Positions 1 through 5,974 of a stretch of DNA of 5,974 nt are shown here, one piece after another. The stretch is from the NCBI GenBank assembly GCA_964457525.1, contig CAYWGS010000078.1, forward strand, positions 1-5,974. The letters run 5' to 3'. The stretch comes from an uncultured Erysipelotrichaceae bacterium (GTDB taxonomy: Bacteria; Bacillota_I; Bacilli_A; Erysipelotrichales; Erysipelotrichaceae). Within the stretch, counting starts at the first letter, position 1; every line of letters starts with the position of its first letter. The translations under genes and the position numbers were made by a program. Under the pieces are notes generated by a model. That model did no database searches and had not been told where the DNA came from. It saw only the letters and a program-made list of their open reading frames with translations.

Positions 1-10
1 TTATAGAAAG

Positions 11-19
11 TGTAATATT
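11..19 (+). promoter_or_regulatory. Candidate extended -10 element (TG-T-AATATT) for the first transcription unit; any -35 would lie upstream of the window
   Basis: TG at 11-12 is followed one base later by AATATT (14-19), a 4/6 match to TATAAT. A start near 26 would leave a roughly 30-nt leader containing the RBS at 47-55. AT-rich context makes chance matches likely, and the window edge cuts off the -35 region. Confidence 0.2.
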
Positions 20-58
20 GATATTAGTTAACATTATTAAATAAAAAAAGGAGAGATT

Positions 59-691
59 ATGCGTTTATTCGATGAATTCTATCAAGCATTTGAAAATTTA
101 GAACAAGAAAAATGTATAGATTTAGTCAGTAATGCACTTAAGAATCAAGAGATTACAATCACTGATTTGTATGAGAATGTGTTACGAAAATCCATGTCGC
201 ATTTAACAGATGTAGAAACAGATGTTAATCATAAAATATGGAAAGAACATATCCAATCGGGTATTGTTCGCAGTGTGATTGAAATGGCATATCCGTATGT
301 GTTAAACAATCGTTCAAGTAAGTCAATTAAGAGAGCTGCTGTTATTTGCCCTGATGGGGAGCAACATGAACTTGGGGCTCGTATGGTAAGTGATTATATT
401 AGAATGATGGGTTTTGAAACATTTTTTGTTGGTCGTGATACACCACGAAAAGAATTGTATGATTTGATAAATACACTCAAATTGGATTTAATTGCGATCA
501 GTGTTACCAATTATTACAATATTTCAAAGGCGATTCAAATGGTTTCTTTTATTGAGTCTAACTTTCCATCTATTAAGTTAATTGTTGGTGGTAAAGGCTT
601 TGAAATGAATCCACATTTATTCGATGAAAATAGTGTTCATATTACACACAGTTATGAAGATATTAAGAAAGTGTTGGGAGAATTAGTATGA
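59..691 (+). CDS. Standalone cobalamin (B12)-binding domain protein: helical cap plus Rossmann-type B12-binding domain, CarH/AerR/corrinoid-protein-like module, no output domain
   Basis: 210-codon ORF with ATG at 59 preceded by AAAGGAGAG (47-55). The C-terminal half reads AVICPDGEQHELGARMVSDYIRMMGFETFFVG...LIAISVT...IKLIVGGKG. This gives E101-x-H103-x-x-G106, then 41 residues to S148-x-T150, then 26 residues to G177-G178 (hand counted). That fits the E/DxHxxG-(41)-SxV/T-(22-27)-GG base-off/His-on cobalamin signature known from MetH, corrinoid proteins and CarH. The N-terminal ~90 aa looks helical (B12-binding_2-like cap) and contains W61-K-E63-H64. There is no signal peptide, TM segment or DNA-binding domain. 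Confidence 0.85.
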   Translation: MRLFDEFYQAFENLEQEKCIDLVSNALKNQEITITDLYENVLRKSMSHLTDVETDVNHKIWKEHIQSGIVRSVIEMAYPYVLNNRSSKSIKRAAVICPDGEQHELGARMVSDYIRMMGFETFFVGRDTPRKELYDLINTLKLDLIAISVTNYYNISKAIQMVSFIESNFPSIKLIVGGKGFEMNPHLFDENSVHITHSYEDIKKVLGELV

Positions 692-1821
692 AATTTGCCT
701 TTTCAGTTGCGAAAAGATTTCTAGGATACAACAAAGGACAAACCCTAATGATTATGATTGGGATTGCGATTGGGGTATCTGTCCAAATATTTATTGGTTT
801 ATTAATTTCTGGTCTTCAAGAAAGTTTAATTGATAAGACAGTTGGTAGTACACCACATATTACAATTACTCAAGAAGAAGATTTAAGTTTTGGTGATTTT
901 GAAATTAAAAATGATGAATTTACAGCGGTTGCATATCAAGCGGAAGGTCCTGCATTTGCGATCACAGAAGATGATGATGCGTCTATTTTATTAAGAGGTC
1001 TCAGTGCTGAAGGTGATCAACTATATAAACTCAGTGAAAAAATAGTGGATGGTAAAATGCCTTCACAAAAGAATGATGTTATTGTGGGATTAGGGTTAAA
1101 GGAAAAATTGAATTTAAAGGTTAATGACACATTGACTTTAAGAACAATTAACAATCAAACTGTGGATGTTAAAGTGGTTGGAATTGTAGATTTAAAAGTT
1201 GATTCGATTAATAACTCATGGGTTTTATCGACACTACCGACTGCTCAAGGTTTATTTGAAATGGATGATAAAATTACATCCATTGCGATTCAAGTTAAAG
1301 ATGTCTTTACAGCAGATACATTAGCTGAAGAACTTAAAGCTGACATGCCAGTTACTGACTTGGAAGTTGTTAACTGGAAAGAACAGAATGAAGATTTATT
1401 AAGTGGTTTAAATGGTCAAAGTATTTCGAGTATTATGATTCAAGTGTTTGTATTGGTTTCTGTTGTGCTTGGTATTGCGAGTGTTCTTGCGATAACAGTT
1501 CTTCAAAAATCTAAACAAATTGGTATCTTAAAAGCGATGGGAATTCCTGATAATACTGCAAGTCAAATATTCTTATTCCAAGGATTAATCTTAGGATTCT
1601 ATGGTGCTATTCTTGGTGTACTCTTTGGATTAGGTTTAATACTAGCGTTTACGACATTTGCTCGTAATCCAGATGGATCTGCGTTGATCCCAATTAATTA
1701 TGATATTCCGTTTATTTTATTCTCAGGATCAGTAGCGATTCTATCTGCTTTAATCGCATCATTTATTCCTGCGGCTCGTTCTAAGAAGTTAAGCCCTATG
1801 GAGGTTATTCGAAATGGATAA
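688..1821 (+). CDS. ABC transporter permease, MacB/LolCE/FtsX family (type VII ABC fold), 4 TM with ~200-aa extracytoplasmic domain
   Basis: 377-codon ORF. ATG 688 overlaps the upstream stop (ATGA, 688-691), and GGGAG lies at 676-680. One N-terminal TM (LMIMIGIAIGVSVQIFIGLLISG) is followed by a hydrophilic domain at aa ~45-245 (MacB periplasmic-core-like). Three C-terminal TMs follow, with the FtsX-domain hallmark region NWKEQNEDLLSGLNGQSISSIMIQVFVLVSVVLGIASVLAITVLQKSKQIGILKAMGIPDNTASQIFLFQGLILG. Confidence 0.9.
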   Translation: MKFAFSVAKRFLGYNKGQTLMIMIGIAIGVSVQIFIGLLISGLQESLIDKTVGSTPHITITQEEDLSFGDFEIKNDEFTAVAYQAEGPAFAITEDDDASILLRGLSAEGDQLYKLSEKIVDGKMPSQKNDVIVGLGLKEKLNLKVNDTLTLRTINNQTVDVKVVGIVDLKVDSINNSWVLSTLPTAQGLFEMDDKITSIAIQVKDVFTADTLAEELKADMPVTDLEVVNWKEQNEDLLSGLNGQSISSIMIQVFVLVSVVLGIASVLAITVLQKSKQIGILKAMGIPDNTASQIFLFQGLILGFYGAILGVLFGLGLILAFTTFARNPDGSALIPINYDIPFILFSGSVAILSALIASFIPAARSKKLSPMEVIRNG

Positions 1822-2509
1822 TATTGTAGAACTAAAAGAAATAACAAAAATTTATGGTGATAAAGTTAAAACTCAAGTCCTTCATGGATTAAATCTATCA
1901 ATTGAAAAGGGAAGCTTTAACTCAATTATTGGACAATCTGGAAGTGGTAAGAGTACATTACTTAATATTTTAGGAACCTTAGATCGTCCCTCTGGTGGAG
2001 AAATCATTATCAATGGTGTTAACACAAAGGCGATGAGTTCGAATCAATTAGCTAAGTTAAGAAATGAAACATTAGGCTTTATCTTCCAATTTCACTTTTT
2101 ACTCCCTGAATTTACAGCATTAGAAAATGTATTAATGCCTTACCGTATCATGGGGAAAAAGATTGATGATAAAGTAATGGAACGTGCAAATGAGCTTATT
2201 GAACTTGTTGGTTTAACTAAGGTTAAAAACAATTTAGCGACTCAAATGTCTGGTGGTCAACAACAACGTACTGCAATTGCTCGTTCACTTATGAATAATC
2301 CGAGTATTATTCTTGCGGATGAACCTACAGGTAACTTAGATTCTGATACAACTGAACAAATCTATGATTTAATGCGTAAGATTAATAAGAAGTATAATAC
2401 GACATTCATTATTATCACACATGATCAACACGTGGCTGAAAAGACAGATCGTATCATTGAAATTAAAGATGGACGAATTGTAATGGATGTTAAGCGTGTA
2501 AATGAATAA
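1814..2509 (+). CDS. ABC transporter ATP-binding protein, MacB/LolD/FtsE-like subfamily
   Basis: 231-codon ORF. ATG 1814 overlaps the permease stop by 8 nt (ATGGATAA), and GGAGG lies at 1800-1804. Motifs present: Walker A GQSGSGKST (nt 1931-1957), Q-loop FQFHFLLPEFTALENV, signature MSGGQQQR, Walker B/D-loop [13 protein letters not shown]-loop ITHD. All catalytic motifs are intact. Confidence 0.95.
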   Translation: MDNIVELKEITKIYGDKVKTQVLHGLNLSIEKGSFNSIIGQSGSGKSTLLNILGTLDRPSGGEIIINGVNTKAMSSNQLAKLRNETLGFIFQFHFLLPEFTALENVLMPYRIMGKKIDDKVMERANELIELVGLTKVKNNLATQMSGGQQQRTAIARSLMNNPSIILADEPTGNLDSDTTEQIYDLMRKINKKYNTTFIIITHDQHVAEKTDRIIEIKDGRIVMDVKRVNE

Positions 2510-2537
2510 TATCTTCCATTTGGAAGATATTTTTTTA
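2509..2537 (+). terminator. Rho-independent terminator ending the first transcription unit
   Basis: Perfect inverted repeat ATATCTTCCA (2509-2518) / TGGAAGATAT (2521-2530). Realistically this forms a 9-bp stem with a 4-nt loop. A T-tract (2531-2536) follows immediately, and the structure starts at the last base of the stop codon of the ATPase gene. Confidence 0.8.
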
Positions 2538-2538
2538 T

Positions 2539-2592
2539 CTTAATCTAAGATTAATATTAACTGTGTTACACTAAGACTGTAATTAATCATAT
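2539..2592 (+). promoter_or_regulatory. Intergenic region expected to carry the promoter of the second unit; only weak sigma-A-like elements are visible
   Basis: The region lies between the terminator and the RBS AGGAGG (2593-2598). The best -10-like hexamers are TAATAT (2552-2557, 4/6) and TGTAAT (2578-2583, 5/6). Neither has a convincing -35 at 16-18 nt spacing. GTTACA (2565-2570) is -35-like, but its cognate -10 would overlap the RBS. Confidence 0.25.
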
Positions 2593-2605
2593 AGGAGGAA
2601 AGACG

Positions 2606-4033
2606 ATGAATTTTCTTAAACGAGCATTTCTAAGCTTATCAAGACGAAAAGGTAAATCACTCATACTTTTAGTTATTATTTTTATTTTGAGTAATGTTAT
2701 GGCAGGGTCCATTGCGATTGGACAAGCTTCTAATAATGTCGAAAAGACAATTAAATTACAATTAGGTGCAAATGCGAGTGTTGAACTTGATTGGGAGAAA
2801 ATGCAGGATTGGACTGAAGAACAATGGAACTCATTACAATATGTCACTCCAGAAATGGCAGATAAGATTGGTTCATTGTCTTACGTTAAGTATTATGACT
2901 ATAGTTCAGAGTCCTATATTAATTCTACAACTCTAACTCAATATGATCCTAATATGGTTGAGGTTCCTACGATGAGCTATTTCCCATTAAAGGGTGTTCA
3001 ATATGCGCCAATAATGGATATTGCGAATGGTAGTGCAACTTTAGTTGAAGGACGTACTTTTGATGAGAACGAGATAACAAATGCGGATTATGTTGCATTA
3101 ATCTCGGATAAAGTAGCCGAAATTAACAATGTGTTTGTTGGTGATGTCATTTATCTTCAAAATACATTCACAATTTGGAAAGATGACAATACAACAGAAG
3201 AAATCAAACGTGATATCGCTCTAGAAATTATCGGTATCTTTACACCTAAAGTTGAACAAAATGAAGAAAATAATGGTGGTTGGATTGATTATACGCCATT
3301 CAATCGTATCTATGTTCCTAATGGTGTAGTTCATGCGGAAAATCGTTGGATGAATGAACAGTATGCGGCTGCATATCCAGATTCAAATTTTCAAATTGAT
3401 CAAATTTATATTACTCCAACATTTGTTTTGAATAATCCAGAAGATGTTGAAAGTTTCAGAACTGAAGCAAAGGGTTTATTACCTGATTATTATAAAGTTA
3501 CTGTTTCTAGTGATGCATATGATTCAGTTGCTGGCCCAATTAAGTTTATTGGTTCTCTATCAAATATCATTCTTTATGTGGCAATTGGTGCTACGATCTT
3601 AATCCTAAGTTTAGTTGTAATTCTATTCTTGCGTGATCGTAAGCATGAGTTAGGTATCTATTTATCGCTCGGTGAAAGTAAAGCTAAAGTTGTTGGTCAA
3701 ATCTTGATTGAAGTTGTAACAATTGCTTTAATTGCGATTACATTATCGCTCTTGACGGGTAATTCAATTGCTGAATCTACGTCTCAATCAATGATTGATT
3801 TAAGAAATGAAATTGCTGGTACGAATGATGATAATGGAATTGTGTATCGCAATATGGGTTACTATCCAGGTAATGGTGTAACTGAAGATGATGTAATGGA
3901 AGCATATAAAATTGAATTTTCTTGGGACTATGTAATTATTCTTTATGGTGTAGGTCTTGGCACAGTGTTACTATCTAGTATCGCTCCAATGGTTTATATC
4001 TTAAGATTGAAACCTAAGAAGATCATGATGTAG
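2606..4033 (+). CDS. ABC transporter permease, MacB/FtsX family, with enlarged (~275 aa) extracytoplasmic domain and a long TM3-TM4 loop
   Basis: 475-codon ORF with AGGAGG at 2593-2598, 7 nt before the ATG. TM1 is aa ~18-39 (LILLVIIFILSNVMAGSIAIG) and the hydrophilic domain is aa ~40-315. TM2 is aa ~316-342 (SNIILYVAIGATILILSLVVILFL), followed by the FtsX-type cytoplasmic turn RDRKHELGIYLSLGESKAKV. TM3 is aa ~361-385, a ~55-aa hydrophilic loop spans aa 386-440, and TM4 is aa ~441-466. Confidence 0.9.
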   Translation: MNFLKRAFLSLSRRKGKSLILLVIIFILSNVMAGSIAIGQASNNVEKTIKLQLGANASVELDWEKMQDWTEEQWNSLQYVTPEMADKIGSLSYVKYYDYSSESYINSTTLTQYDPNMVEVPTMSYFPLKGVQYAPIMDIANGSATLVEGRTFDENEITNADYVALISDKVAEINNVFVGDVIYLQNTFTIWKDDNTTEEIKRDIALEIIGIFTPKVEQNEENNGGWIDYTPFNRIYVPNGVVHAENRWMNEQYAAAYPDSNFQIDQIYITPTFVLNNPEDVESFRTEAKGLLPDYYKVTVSSDAYDSVAGPIKFIGSLSNIILYVAIGATILILSLVVILFLRDRKHELGIYLSLGESKAKVVGQILIEVVTIALIAITLSLLTGNSIAESTSQSMIDLRNEIAGTNDDNGIVYRNMGYYPGNGVTEDDVMEAYKIEFSWDYVIILYGVGLGTVLLSSIAPMVYILRLKPKKIMM

Positions 4034-4044
4034 GAGGTAAACCC

Positions 4045-4719
4045 ATGGCAATTCTAAAAGCAAATAATTTAAAATACTATTATCAAGATGGTGAAAATAT
4101 TCGTACAATTTTGAAGGATTTAAGCATTGAGTTTGAAAAAGGGAAATTCTATACCATCTTAGGACCTTCTGGTAGTGGTAAGACTACGTTATTATCTCTG
4201 TTAGCAGCACTTGATGAACCTAAAGAAGGAAAGATCTTATATAACGATCAAGATATTAAAGCAATTGGTTATGAAAAATATCGTAGAAATATGGTAAGTA
4301 TCGTTTTCCAAAGCTACAATCTTGTTCCATATATGACAGCTGTTGAGAATGTAATGATTCCTATGGCAATTACTGAGAATGAAATTCCGAAGAATACTAA
4401 AGAAGTTGCATATAATTTATTAGATTATATTGGAATTACTAAATCTAAAGCAGATCGTATTGTAAATAAACTATCGGGTGGTGAGCAACAACGTGTTGCG
4501 ATTGCTCGTTCACTAGCAAGTAACGTTGATATTATTTTCGCAGATGAACCTACAGGTAACTTAGATTCTGAATTAGAAGATGAAATCATTGAGATTTTTA
4601 AGACCTTAGCACATGAGCATAACAAATGTATTATTATGGTTACTCACTCTAAGGAAATTGCTGATAAGTCTGATGTTTCATATCAGTTGAAAAAAGGAGT
4701 GTTATTGCAAAATGAGTGA
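4045..4719 (+). CDS. ABC transporter ATP-binding protein, MacB/LolD/FtsE-like subfamily (paralog of 1814-2509)
   Basis: 224-codon ORF. AGGAGG (4032-4037) overlaps the permease stop codon. Motifs present: Walker [11 protein letters not shown]-loop [16 protein letters not shown], signature LSGGEQQR, Walker B/D-loop [13 protein letters not shown]-loop VTHS. Confidence 0.95.
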
Positions 4720-5974
4720 CTTCTTAAATAAGTTTTCTAAAAAAGATTACAAAAGTGAATCTCAAGAGAAACCAAAATCGATCGAAACGCCAAAAGAAGA
4801 AGTGAAGACAGTTGAATCAAAACCTGTCGAAACTGTAAAACCAACTCCTGTTGTTTCTACTTCACGTCACGAGGAAGAAGTACATATTGATCCTAGCTAT
4901 CGTAGGAACCAAAGAAATAAGATAATTATTGGTGCTGTTGCGATTGTCGCATTGCTTGCCTTATCATTTGGAGTTTACTACTTGCTTAATCAAGTTCAAA
5001 TTCCTGATTATGTAAATAAACCATTATCAGAATTAAAAACATGGGCATCTAGAAATAATATTGCTTTAGAAACAGAGTATCAATTCAATTTAGAAGTAAA
5101 TAAAGACTATATTATTGATTTAAATCCTGTCGCGAACTCAAATATTCAGAAGGGTTCTATCCTAAAAGTTATTGTTAGTGATGGTGCGGACCCTGATGAA
5201 CAGATTCAAGTTCCTGATTTTACCGGTAATACTTATTATCAAATTCAAGAATGGTTAAGTACGAACAAGATAAATAATTTGCGTATTACTTACGAAAACA
5301 ATGAAGATATTCCAGTGAATGAATTTGTTCGTATCGTATTCAATGATAAGACGATTACAAGTGATTCTTATACACGTAAAGATTATGGCTTAATCTATTT
5401 GTCTAATGGTCCTGTTGTATATGAAAAGAATATTAAAGTACCAAATTGGACAACTGCTGCGACAAGTGTAGTAAGTGCTCAAGCTTGGGGATTAGAACAA
5501 GATGTAGAGGTAATTGTAAATTTAGTTAATTCTACATCAGTACCTAAAGATATTATTATCTCTCAAAGTATTGCTCCAGATACAATGATTGCGAAGAAGA
5601 GTAAGATTACGATTACTGTTTCTCTTGGTCAAATTGTCACAGTTCCTGATTTCTCTAAGATGTCGAAAGAAGAAGCTGAAAACACATCCTTAAGTAATGC
5701 GGTTGTTAAGTATGTTGAAATGTATCAACCAAAAACAGGTGCTACTTATGGCTCATATATCTGGCAAGATGTAAAAGCTGGAACAAATATCGATCAAAGT
5801 AGTGCAACTAAATTGGTTATTACAGTCTATTACTCATTGGGTCAACCATATTTGAGTTCAATGGTAGGTCATTCTGAAGCTGAAATTCCAACATTTATAT
5901 ATGATCAAAATCTAAAGAGTGCAAATTTTACTTTTGAAGTACAAGCTTCAACCATTAATGAGGCTCCTAAAGGT
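4712..5974 (+). CDS. Bitopic membrane protein with tandem extracellular PASTA-like domains (3' end beyond window); no kinase or transpeptidase domain upstream of the repeats
   Basis: This ORF is not in the supplied track because it has no stop inside the window. Hand translation from ATG 4712 gives 421 sense codons with no stop up to 5974. The frame opens after TGA at 4688-4690, and 4712 is the first start codon in it. AAGGAG lies at 4694-4699, and the ATG overlaps the ATPase stop by 8 nt (ATGAGTGA). The protein starts [73 protein letters not shown] helix IIIGAVAIVALLALSFGVYYLL follows, then repeats of ~65-70 aa, each opening with (I/V)-x-(I/V)-P-(D/N)-(Y/F/W) and closing with hydrophobic-x-V-S-x-G. 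Confidence 0.85.
   Translation, partial: MSDFLNKFSKKDYKSESQEKPKSIETPKEEVKTVESKPVETVKPTPVVSTSRHEEEVHIDPSYRRNQRNKIIIGAVAIVALLALSFGVYYLLNQVQIPDYVNKPLSELKTWASRNNIALETEYQFNLEVNKDYIIDLNPVANSNIQKGSILKVIVSDGADPDEQIQVPDFTGNTYYQIQEWLSTNKINNLRITYENNEDIPVNEFVRIVFNDKTITSDSYTRKDYGLIYLSNGPVVYEKNIKVPNWTTAATSVVSAQAWGLEQDVEVIVNLVNSTSVPKDIIISQSIAPDTMIAKKSKITITVSLGQIVTVPDFSKMSKEEAENTSLSNAVVKYVEMYQPKTGATYGSYIWQDVKAGTNIDQSSATKLVITVYYSLGQPYLSSMVGHSEAEIPTFIYDQNLKSANFTFEVQASTINEAPKG
4994..5974 (+). repeat. Tandem array of at least 5 PASTA-like protein modules (protein-level repeats, diverged at DNA level)
   Basis: Module boundaries from hand translation are as follows. Module 1, aa 95-157 (nt 4994-5182): VQIPDY...IIDLNPVANSNIQKGSILKVIVSDG. 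Module 2, aa 165-233 (5204-5410): IQVPDF...LIYLSNG. Module 3, aa 241-306 (5432-5629): IKVPNW...IIISQSIAPDTMIAKKSKITITVSLG. Module 4, aa 308-376 (5633-5839): IVTVPDF...KLVITVYYSLG. Module 5, aa 379-421 (5846-5974) is truncated by the window. The pattern v-x-vPd-x-G...vi-x-Q-x-P-x-x-G...v-x-l-x-vS-x-G is the PASTA consensus. The recurring TTCCTGATT (VPD/IPD) at 4997, 5210 and 5642 marks module starts at DNA level. Confidence 0.7.

Follow-up and report, generated by a model that had tools for sequence, protein, structure and literature searches.

Here we describe a gene that runs off the end of a 5,974-nucleotide stretch of DNA from an uncultured Erysipelotrichaceae bacterium (the window; forward strand of contig CAYWGS010000078.1, positions 1 to 5,974, assembly GCA_964457525.1) and that encodes a membrane protein whose extracytoplasmic part consists of PASTA domains. 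The gene directly follows, and overlaps, the ATPase gene of a Type VII (MacB-like) ATP-binding cassette (ABC) transporter, with which it is co-inherited across Bacillota and Coriobacteriia. Studies of PASTA domains have dealt almost solely with two settings, the sensor part of Ser/Thr kinases and an appended part of penicillin-binding proteins (PBPs), and how they read the cell wall is still debated. Judged from sequence, predicted structure and gene neighbourhood, the protein is probably (at about 60%, by our own estimate) a wall- or lipid II-binding partner subunit that would direct or gate the transporter, and the assembly as a whole is most likely a mechanotransmission ABC system with a PASTA wall-binding subunit.

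Results

A PASTA-only membrane protein

Translation of the window revealed 421 codons without a stop, from the ATG at position 4712 to position 5974, the last base, and the frame was missing from a mechanical list of open reading frames (ORFs) solely because its stop codon lies beyond the window edge. At the window's G+C content of 32.7%, so many codons in a row would lack a stop by chance with a probability of ~2 × 10−16. A near-identical full-length homologue (P0001; 99% identity) is 451 amino acids (aa) long, and the window copy is therefore short by 30 residues only, with no further domain to come. The gene is under purifying selection, uneven along the protein, with a ratio of non-synonymous to synonymous substitution rates (dN/dS) of 0.11–0.13 relative to three relatives, and a search of 5.8 billion proteins returned 103 homologues, nearly all of 430–600 aa and containing PASTA domains only. 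A first-pass annotation, made by a model from the letters alone, had proposed this gene, its coordinates and a transmembrane helix at nucleotides 4919–4987; the gene is real, and all of those coordinates are correct.

The product is a bitopic membrane protein (N terminus in, C terminus out) with a 69-aa cytoplasmic tail, a single transmembrane helix and five PASTA modules, and it has no catalytic domain (Table 1). Four positive charges lie N-terminal of the transmembrane helix (YRRNQRNK) and fit the N-in topology; in the AlphaFold model the helix covers residues 63–92, and PASTA module 1 begins three residues past the transmembrane segment. The Pfam PASTA model (PF03793) matched the protein at 75.2 bits (gathering score, 23.2 bits) in three stretches, with nothing else of note. 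When modules 1–5 were scanned separately (29, 13, 32, 21 and 16 bits, respectively), modules 1 and 3 passed PF03793 alone and modules 2, 4 and 5 were weak; PASTA was the top family for modules 4 and 5, and for module 2 it ranked below two weak ubiquitin-family matches. Module 2 is atypical in sequence and carries Y220 and D224 (each at least 90% conserved) and the invariant R222. The score for module 5 (16.1 bits) is that of the complete module from P0001, ~60% of which lies in the window.

Structural modelling of P0001 with AlphaFold (from a 66-sequence alignment) gave a mean predicted local distance difference test score (pLDDT) of 86.5, mostly above 90 in the ectodomain, and recovered five units of one helix plus three strands; the predicted template modelling score was 0.45, so the arrangement between modules is uncertain. 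Among solved structures, the best fold match was the whole ectodomain of Staphylococcus aureus PrkC (3py9, E = 4 × 10−13), followed by the PASTA domains of Mycobacterium tuberculosis PknB (2kui, 5e12 and 5e10), PBP2x and S. aureus PBP1, and nearly all of the top 30 Foldseek matches to this model were PASTA structures. The expectation that the alpha-plus-three-beta PASTA fold would recur in each module was thus borne out for all five, and the earlier count of at least five modules can be refined to exactly five, of which the window holds modules 1–4 and part of module 5.

No Pfam match to a Pkinase or transpeptidase domain was found in the PASTA protein. Residues 15–206 aligned to the PASTA kinase model NF033483 (PknB_PASTA_kin), at its positions 282–474 only (101.6 bits; cut-off, 450), the matched part being the juxtamembrane region, the transmembrane helix and the first PASTA units. 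Similarly, a protein combining a kinase with PASTA domains (P0103) aligned with P0001 only from residue 60, over the transmembrane helix and modules 1–3 (24% identity), and the N-terminal peptide and most of the tail thus have no counterpart there. P0001 ends after module 5, so that the C-terminal catalytic domain that might have placed the protein in a known family is absent, and both of the contexts in which PASTA domains are usually met, kinase and PBP, are excluded for the complete protein and not just for the part seen at first pass.

Conserved linkage to ABC transporters

We examined gene neighbourhoods from both sides of the proposed partnership. From the PASTA side, an ABC transporter was present in 15 of 15 neighbourhoods. 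The order MacB-type permease, ATPase, PASTA gene was found in loci L001–L004, L007–L010 and L012, which include three Erysipelotrichaceae or Bacillota genomes (L001–L003), a contig near-identical to the window (L004) and a metagenome contig (L012); Erysipelothrix sp. HDW6C, Amphibacillus marinus and Enterococcus termitis share this order, as does a Coriobacteriales genome whose ATPase gene the gene caller overlooked. Longer PASTA arrays retain this order (L093, L094 and L097; P0349, P0365 and P0364, of 729–803 aa, each following a MacB-type permease and ATPase and each beside a two-component system), and in L096 the PASTA gene comes first (P0377 precedes permease and ATPase). In two loci the transporter is of the ABC-2 type instead of the MacB type, and the PASTA gene again directly follows ATPase and permease (P0100, 596 aa, L011 3169–7791; P0373, 561 aa, from a Clostridium sp., L095 3114–7686). 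These ABC-2-type partners (ATPase of ~307 aa; permease of ~600 aa, ABC2_membrane/DUF2705) are structurally unrelated to Type VII.

From the permease side, a search with seven aligned permeases yielded 80 taxonomically unassigned metagenome loci, 56 of which were informative, and the PASTA gene followed permease and ATPase in 49 of the 56, a count in which close relatives may be over-represented; of the 80, 2 further loci were tandem-module cases and 22 lay on contigs that end too early. The question raised at first pass, whether homologues always sit next to FtsX-type ABC pairs, can accordingly be answered as nearly always beside an FtsX/MacB-type pair, with some beside an ABC-2-type transporter. 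Tandem permease paralogues precede one ATPase in L052, L054, L074, L076, L079 and L083, possibly as heterodimers such as LolC/LolE; a PASTA gene is present in L052 and L083 and absent from L074, L076 and L079, and L054 ends too early.

The junction between ATPase and PASTA genes is similarly conserved. The exact 8-nucleotide overlap recurred in 52 of 55 junctions, with an identical octamer in 50, and a Shine-Dalgarno-like motif lay at most 22 nucleotides upstream of the PASTA start in 54 of the 55 loci. Co-translation with the ATPase, for which the overlap in the window had been taken to argue, is thus upheld across loci: the PASTA gene is translationally coupled to the ATPase gene. Among 37 complete trios, pairwise distances of the three proteins were strongly correlated (Mantel r = 0.90–0.93; none of 2,000 permutations reached the observed value), which shows that the trio is co-inherited without partner swapping. 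An intact permease–ATPase–PASTA module is also carried by a ~1-Mb megaplasmid of Enterococcus raffinosus F162_2 (L099 1828–5443). At L058 (5858–7449), the PASTA gene is split between two frames (profile positions 3–260 and 260–449), owing to a frameshift that has made it a pseudogene or else to an error in the assembly.

The window permease is a Type VII (MacB-like) ABC permease with an adjacent cognate ATPase. It has an extracytoplasmic domain of ~270 aa between the first two transmembrane helices and a loop of ~53 aa between the third and fourth, and its AlphaFold model (pLDDT 77; helices 15–53, 303–354, 359–403 and 440–466) matched MacB, Spr0695 (5xu1), LolC/E, YbbP, HrtB, YtrF and BceB in Foldseek. 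Both permease and ATPase scored below every NCBIfam equivalog threshold, including those of FtsX and FtsE.

A conserved N-terminal peptide

Conservation within the family peaks in the N-terminal cytoplasmic peptide MSDFLxxF (mean conservation of 0.72, versus 0.52–0.57 in the PASTA modules and 0.30 in the linker), in which six positions (M1, S2, D3, F4, L5 and F8) are either invariant or conserved to at least 90%. Relative to L001, residues 1–14 show zero non-synonymous change (pN = 0), and the linker is near neutral (pN = 0.43 versus pS = 0.56). Because the overlap with the ATPase gene covers the first eight nucleotides only, it cannot account for the conservation of F4, L5 and F8; the motif is also retained in the Coriobacteriales PASTA gene despite the absence of the overlap there. 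Overall, 147 of 239 sequences contain the N-terminal motif and most of the others have an FL motif of looser form, and 96 of the 147 carry D[PQ]x[YF] before the transmembrane helix (in the window, the D-P-(S/T)-Y of residues 60–63, nucleotides 4889–4900, with D60 at least 90% conserved). The looser form, [S/N/D]-F-L-[D/E/N/S]-x-hydrophobic, occurs both in longer classes of PASTA protein and in those linked to ABC-2-type transporters (for example, MNNDNNFLEMY and MESDNPFLSAY). As the ATPase domain is the sole component common to both transporter classes, we infer that the FL peptide docks on the ATPase; held on its flexible linker, it probably reaches either the ATPase itself or the adjacent membrane–cytoplasm interface. 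The N terminus of the permease (MNFLKRAFL, 2606–2632) resembles that of the PASTA protein (MSDFLNKFS, 4712–4738), which may be coincidence, and both could be interfacial amphipathic helices.

Wider family and envelope-related neighbours

A profile search of 1.84 billion cluster representatives returned 1,280 proteins at E ≤ 1 × 10−30, and most of the best 150 were full-length, single-stretch matches of 410–590 aa. Longer relatives (560–1019 aa) likewise contain PASTA domains only, and giant proteins (P0224–P0228, P0234 and P0316; 1300–3346 aa, with 8–29 profile-matching stretches) head the representative search. Database names for the family are "PASTA domain-containing protein" or, wrongly, "serine/threonine protein kinase", and we found no dedicated Pfam or NCBIfam model. 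Nor did we find a description of this family or of any PASTA–ABC partnership in a literature search whose coverage excludes most subscription journals. Beyond what the first-pass annotation had noticed, the present analysis adds the MSDFLxxF peptide, the ABC-2-linked relatives and the occasional adjacent two-component systems.

Those two-component systems comprise an OmpR-type regulator and a HisKA kinase adjoining the module in L094 (655–3745), L097 (1–3608), L093 (8197–10546) and L010 (2653–5062), together with pairs recognised by eye in L069 (1411–3511) and L077 (1593–3720). The L094 two-component operon includes a UppS-like prenyltransferase, that of L097 is followed by an NlpC/P60-SH3 hydrolase, genes upstream in L095 encode a class A beta-lactamase-like protein and an NlpC/P60 protein, and the Enterococcus termitis module adjoins uppS. 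The two-component, UppS-like and NlpC/P60 neighbours hint at cell-envelope stress regulation.

Two other candidate roles were considered and rejected. A role in anti-phage defence was suggested by PADLOC, which returned PD-T4-6 matches on the PASTA modules and generic ATPase matches, all outside any defence context; the PD-T4-6 models match P0001 residues 35–401 (E = 1 × 10−17), and the likely reason is PASTA-like repeats within the models. A mobile resistance element was dismissed because the sole plasmid matches were the non-mobilisable ~1-Mb megaplasmids of E. raffinosus.

Upstream genes and the limits of the unit

Directly after the gene for a LolD-like ATPase, a terminator-like hairpin forms the 5′ boundary of the permease–ATPase–PASTA unit (Table 1). 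The genes upstream of it encode a B12-binding-domain protein and a second transporter (LolC/E-like permease and LolD-like ATPase), a trio also found in L002, L003 and L004. It is unusual for a cobalamin-binding cytoplasmic protein to be translationally coupled to a MacB/Lol-type ABC system, and this one could be a further accessory subunit that is as yet uncharacterised. Between the two ABC systems, L002 (4244–7787) and L003 (4244–7787) each carry four ORFs that are absent in the window and in L004; by eye, the last three encode a DeoR-type regulator, a 1-phosphofructokinase and a phosphotransferase system (PTS) permease, probably a fructose PTS operon, and the two ABC systems are therefore independent units. 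Within the window, Rfam models at gathering thresholds identified no regulatory RNA, and a promoter scan gave 27 sites versus 30 expected from shuffled sequence, so we claim no promoter.

Table 1. Features of the window, in order of position. Residue numbers refer to the PASTA protein.
Feature	Position	Strand	Details
B12-binding-domain protein, 210 aa	59-691		PF02310, 48.7 bits; weak PF02607
LolC/E-like Type VII permease	688-1821		Start overlaps stop of the B12 gene (ATGA, 688-691)
LolD-like ATPase	1814-2509		8-nucleotide overlap with the LolC/E-like permease gene
Terminator-like hairpin	2508-2531	+, also called on the minus strand	10-bp perfect stem, loop of 4, T-run
Shine-Dalgarno sequence AGGAGGA, permease gene	2593-2599	+	6 nucleotides before ATG 2606
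Type VII (MacB-like) ABC permease, 475 aa	2606-4033	+	Pfam MacB_PCD, 34 bits; FtsX, 33 bits
ABC ATPase (nucleotide-binding domain), 224 aa, no extra domain	4045-4719	+	Pfam ABC_tran, 116.6 bits
GGAG, Shine-Dalgarno-like, PASTA gene	4696-4699	+	Within the 3′ end of the ATPase gene (K-K-G codons), 12 nucleotides upstream
8-nucleotide overlap ATGAGTGA	4712-4719	+	PASTA gene start codon plus TGA stop of ATPase ORF 4045-4719
PASTA-array membrane protein gene, residues 1-421 of 451	4712-5974	+	30 codons of the 3′ end outside the window
N-terminal cytoplasmic peptide, residues 1-14, beginning MSDFLxxF	4712-4753	+	Highest conservation in the family
Disordered Lys/Glu/Pro-rich cytoplasmic linker, residues 15-56	4754-4879	+	pLDDT <50 (residues 16-57)
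Juxtamembrane segment, residues 57-69	4880-4918	+	D-P-(S/T)-Y motif, then basic residues
Single transmembrane helix, residues 70-92	4919-4987	+	
PASTA module 1, residues 93-164	4988-5203	+	Pfam 29 bits alone; helix 105-114 plus strands
PASTA module 2, residues 165-240	5204-5431	+	Pfam 13 bits; helix 175-184, three strands
PASTA module 3, residues 241-308	5432-5635	+	Pfam 32.4 bits
PASTA module 4, residues 309-378	5636-5845	+	Pfam 21.1 bits
PASTA module 5, first part, residues 379-421 of 379-451	5846-5974	+	Helix 389-401, three strands

Discussion

A proposed partner subunit for a Type VII transporter

In the mechanism that we propose, the PASTA protein (gene from 4712) would be the third subunit of the transporter formed by the permease (2606–4033) and the ATPase (4045–4719), serving as its extracytoplasmic partner in a role analogous to that of EnvC, PcsB, LolA, MacA or TesA. 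Type VII ABC systems characteristically work via such a dedicated extracytoplasmic partner (PMC12646458) and perform mechanical work outside the membrane, as in FtsEX–EnvC, LolCDE–LolA, MacAB–TolC and YbbAP–TesA (PMC12646458 and PMC7668044). The array would bind peptidoglycan stem peptides or lipid II by analogy with PASTA kinases, the ectodomains of which bind muropeptides and lipid II (PMC5786024 and PMC6428115). Either ATP-driven movements of the permease ectodomain would then be aimed at the nascent wall, or the condition of the wall or lipid II would gate the ATPase, with the N-terminal peptide, on the ATPase or at the interface, potentially linking ATPase activity to the ectodomain. The output could be wall remodelling or the protection of lipid II from antibiotics, and the evidence does not favour either. 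A broader generalization, that enzyme-free PASTA arrays constitute a general class of ABC subunit in monoderms, serving two permease architectures through an FL peptide on the ATPase and coupling them to lipid II or peptidoglycan, is possible, if tentative; it would give PASTA domains a third functional setting beside kinases and PBPs.

Several observations count against the partner-subunit reading. The case for a complex comes from genomic data; adjacent genes share a phylogeny, and co-divergence of the trio is thus no proof that its products interact; the case for docking of the N-terminal peptide is made from the distribution of the motif; and PASTA domains differ in ligand, if they have any. 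If the membrane-proximal part of the array contacted the permease, a gradient of conservation might mark it, and no such gradient was found (0.52–0.57 in all five modules). The unusually long extracellular loop between the third and fourth permease helices (~53 aa, with a conserved DDVxxAY motif) was tried and rejected as a marker of PASTA coupling, as it measures 47–65 aa in coupled and uncoupled permeases alike. Finally, seven of the informative permease loci, all at most 39% identical to the window permease, have no PASTA gene, and in four other E. raffinosus strains the PASTA gene matched in fragments only (in the annotated strain, L098 5025–5980, it is two ORFs with IS110 transposases on both sides), from which it follows that the partner is dispensable in some lineages.

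Alternative readings

The partner-subunit reading has two more specific versions, which differ in what the system would deliver. By analogy with BceAB, the array would recognise lipid II or undecaprenyl-linked intermediates for antibiotic sensing or target protection, and the MacB-type transporter would draw on ATP to pull lipid II-binding antimicrobials off them, possibly with signalling to a two-component system. BceAB-type transporters are described as acting on lipid II cycle intermediates by target protection (PMC7038271), the fold matches of the permease include BceB, and two-component systems stand beside L010, L069, L077, L093, L094 and L097; further envelope genes fit as well (the UppS-like prenyltransferase in the L094 two-component operon, uppS beside the Enterococcus termitis module, and the class A beta-lactamase-like and NlpC/P60 genes upstream in L095), and the module is variable or decayed on E. 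raffinosus megaplasmids, a state often seen in accessory resistance genes. We nevertheless regard this version as rather unlikely, given that neither a two-component system nor a regulator adjoins the module in the window or in most close relatives, that the permease (475 aa) has 4 transmembrane helices and not the 10-helix BceB architecture, that mobilisable plasmids gave no matches and that the L069 kinase, the one histidine kinase read in sequence, appears to have an extracellular stretch of ~135 aa (by eye), unlike the intramembrane-sensing BceS-type kinases, the other kinases measuring 471–620 aa. By analogy with FtsEX, the ATP cycle would instead reshape the PASTA array, an inert adaptor like EnvC, which would bring a peptidoglycan hydrolase or synthase to the nascent wall or switch it on there. 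StkP PASTA domains reportedly interact with the hydrolase LytB and influence septal wall thickness, which lends this version some appeal. In addition, FtsX emerged as a sequence relative of the permease in a search of solved structures, an NlpC/P60 hydrolase adjoins the module in L097 and L095, the window locus has a housekeeping context without a regulator, and FtsEX itself acts through inert or regulatory partners (PMC7668044 and PMC11491553). However, no hydrolase or synthase gene was consistently linked in the neighbourhoods examined, the ATPase reached only 169.5 bits against the FtsE model (threshold, 264.85) and the permease matched no FtsX model, and the partner lacks a coiled coil of the sort bound by FtsX ectodomains; we hold it to be improbable to a similar degree.

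Outside the partner-subunit reading, the protein might instead modulate a resident PASTA kinase, by competing for its ligand or by heterodimerising with it, with the ABC linkage being incidental. The alignment of residues 15–206 to positions 282–474 of PknB_PASTA_kin, the kinase ectodomains that head the fold matches and the 24% identity to a true PASTA kinase over the transmembrane helix and modules 1–3 are all compatible with such a role. It is nonetheless very unlikely, because linkage to ABC genes holds in different phyla, in three gene orders and with two classes of transporter, far more consistently than an incidental association would; the fixed 8-nucleotide overlap, moreover, implies stoichiometric co-expression with the ATPase, and the kinase used for comparison has nothing equivalent to the conserved N-terminal peptide. 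That the frame is not a functional gene, being either what decay has left of a PASTA kinase or PBP gene or a frame open by chance, might be suspected from the fragmented copies in L058 and in E. raffinosus strains and from the window edge cutting the gene, but can be excluded for practical purposes in view of the chance-frame probability of ~2 × 10−16, the dN/dS of 0.11–0.13, the 103 homologues and 1,280 representative clusters at E ≤ 1 × 10−30, the confidently predicted fold, and the conserved start, Shine-Dalgarno-like motif and overlap.

Comparison with known systems

Like the PASTA kinases (PknB, PrkC, StkP, Stk1 and IreK; NF033483), which provide its best fold matches (3py9, 3m9g, 2kui and 5e12), the window protein has a single transmembrane helix followed by an extracellular tandem array of PASTA modules. 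It differs from them in having no kinase domain, in its 69-aa cytoplasmic part with its own conserved N-terminal peptide, in its five modules and in its gene lying in an ABC transporter operon, not with a PP2C phosphatase. With class B PBPs (PBP2x, PBP2B, SpoVD and S. aureus PBP1) it shares the PASTA fold (2z2l, 7o61 and 1qmf), but it has no transpeptidase or dimerisation domain and its array starts three residues past the membrane. It is thus a member of the PASTA superfamily that fails the defining feature of both canonical PASTA families, kinase and transpeptidase.

The transporter, for its part, resembles other Type VII systems (FtsEX–EnvC/PcsB/RipC, LolCDE–LolA, MacAB–TolC and YbbAP–TesA) in its MacB fold, in having the ATPase as a separate protein and in a third, genetically dedicated component located largely outside the membrane, but that component is a bitopic PASTA array and not a coiled-coil activator, lipoprotein chaperone, fusion protein or esterase. 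Spr0695 of the Streptococcus pneumoniae Spr0693–0694–0695 system (5xu1) is the best sequence match of the permease among solved structures and the second-best fold match, and the ectodomain of YknZ, from the Bacillus subtilis YknXYZ system, also matches the permease fold. As with the membrane fusion proteins of MacB-like pumps, the third component is N-in with one transmembrane helix and a large ectodomain; unlike in MacAB and YknXYZ, it is a PASTA protein, and no HlyD match was found in the ORFs of the window or of L004. BceAB–BceRS modules share the combination of FtsX-domain permease and ATPase, and some distant loci have an adjacent two-component system as these do, but the permease differs (475 aa and 4 transmembrane helices, versus ~650 aa and 10), Bce modules have no PASTA subunit, and there is no two-component system in the window, in L004 or in close relatives. 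FtsEX proper is distinguished by the sub-threshold FtsE score and by a partner here that is PASTA only, without coiled coil or hydrolase domain. By defining features, then, the transporter belongs to the Type VII class but is distinct from FtsEX, BceAB, LolCDE and pumps that pair MacB with a fusion protein. What is new is the type of partner found with this established transporter class and, for the PASTA domain, a third kind of architecture and gene neighbourhood.

The hypothesis lends itself to direct testing, because the module occurs in hosts that can be cultured (E. raffinosus F162_2, E. termitis, Amphibacillus marinus and Erysipelothrix sp. HDW6C). A PASTA-on-ABC family would provide a third independent system in which to study PASTA ligands and the transmission of their signal across the membrane, and would extend the Type VII ABC "mechanotransmission" family, in which each member acts through its own outside partner, by a partner of a new class. 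It may also reveal a module for cell-wall homeostasis or antibiotic tolerance in Erysipelotrichaceae, halophilic Bacillaceae, some enterococci and Coriobacteriia. If the broader generalization is true, a general PASTA–ABC subunit class would represent a new route by which bacteria maintain wall homeostasis or protect lipid II from antibiotics.

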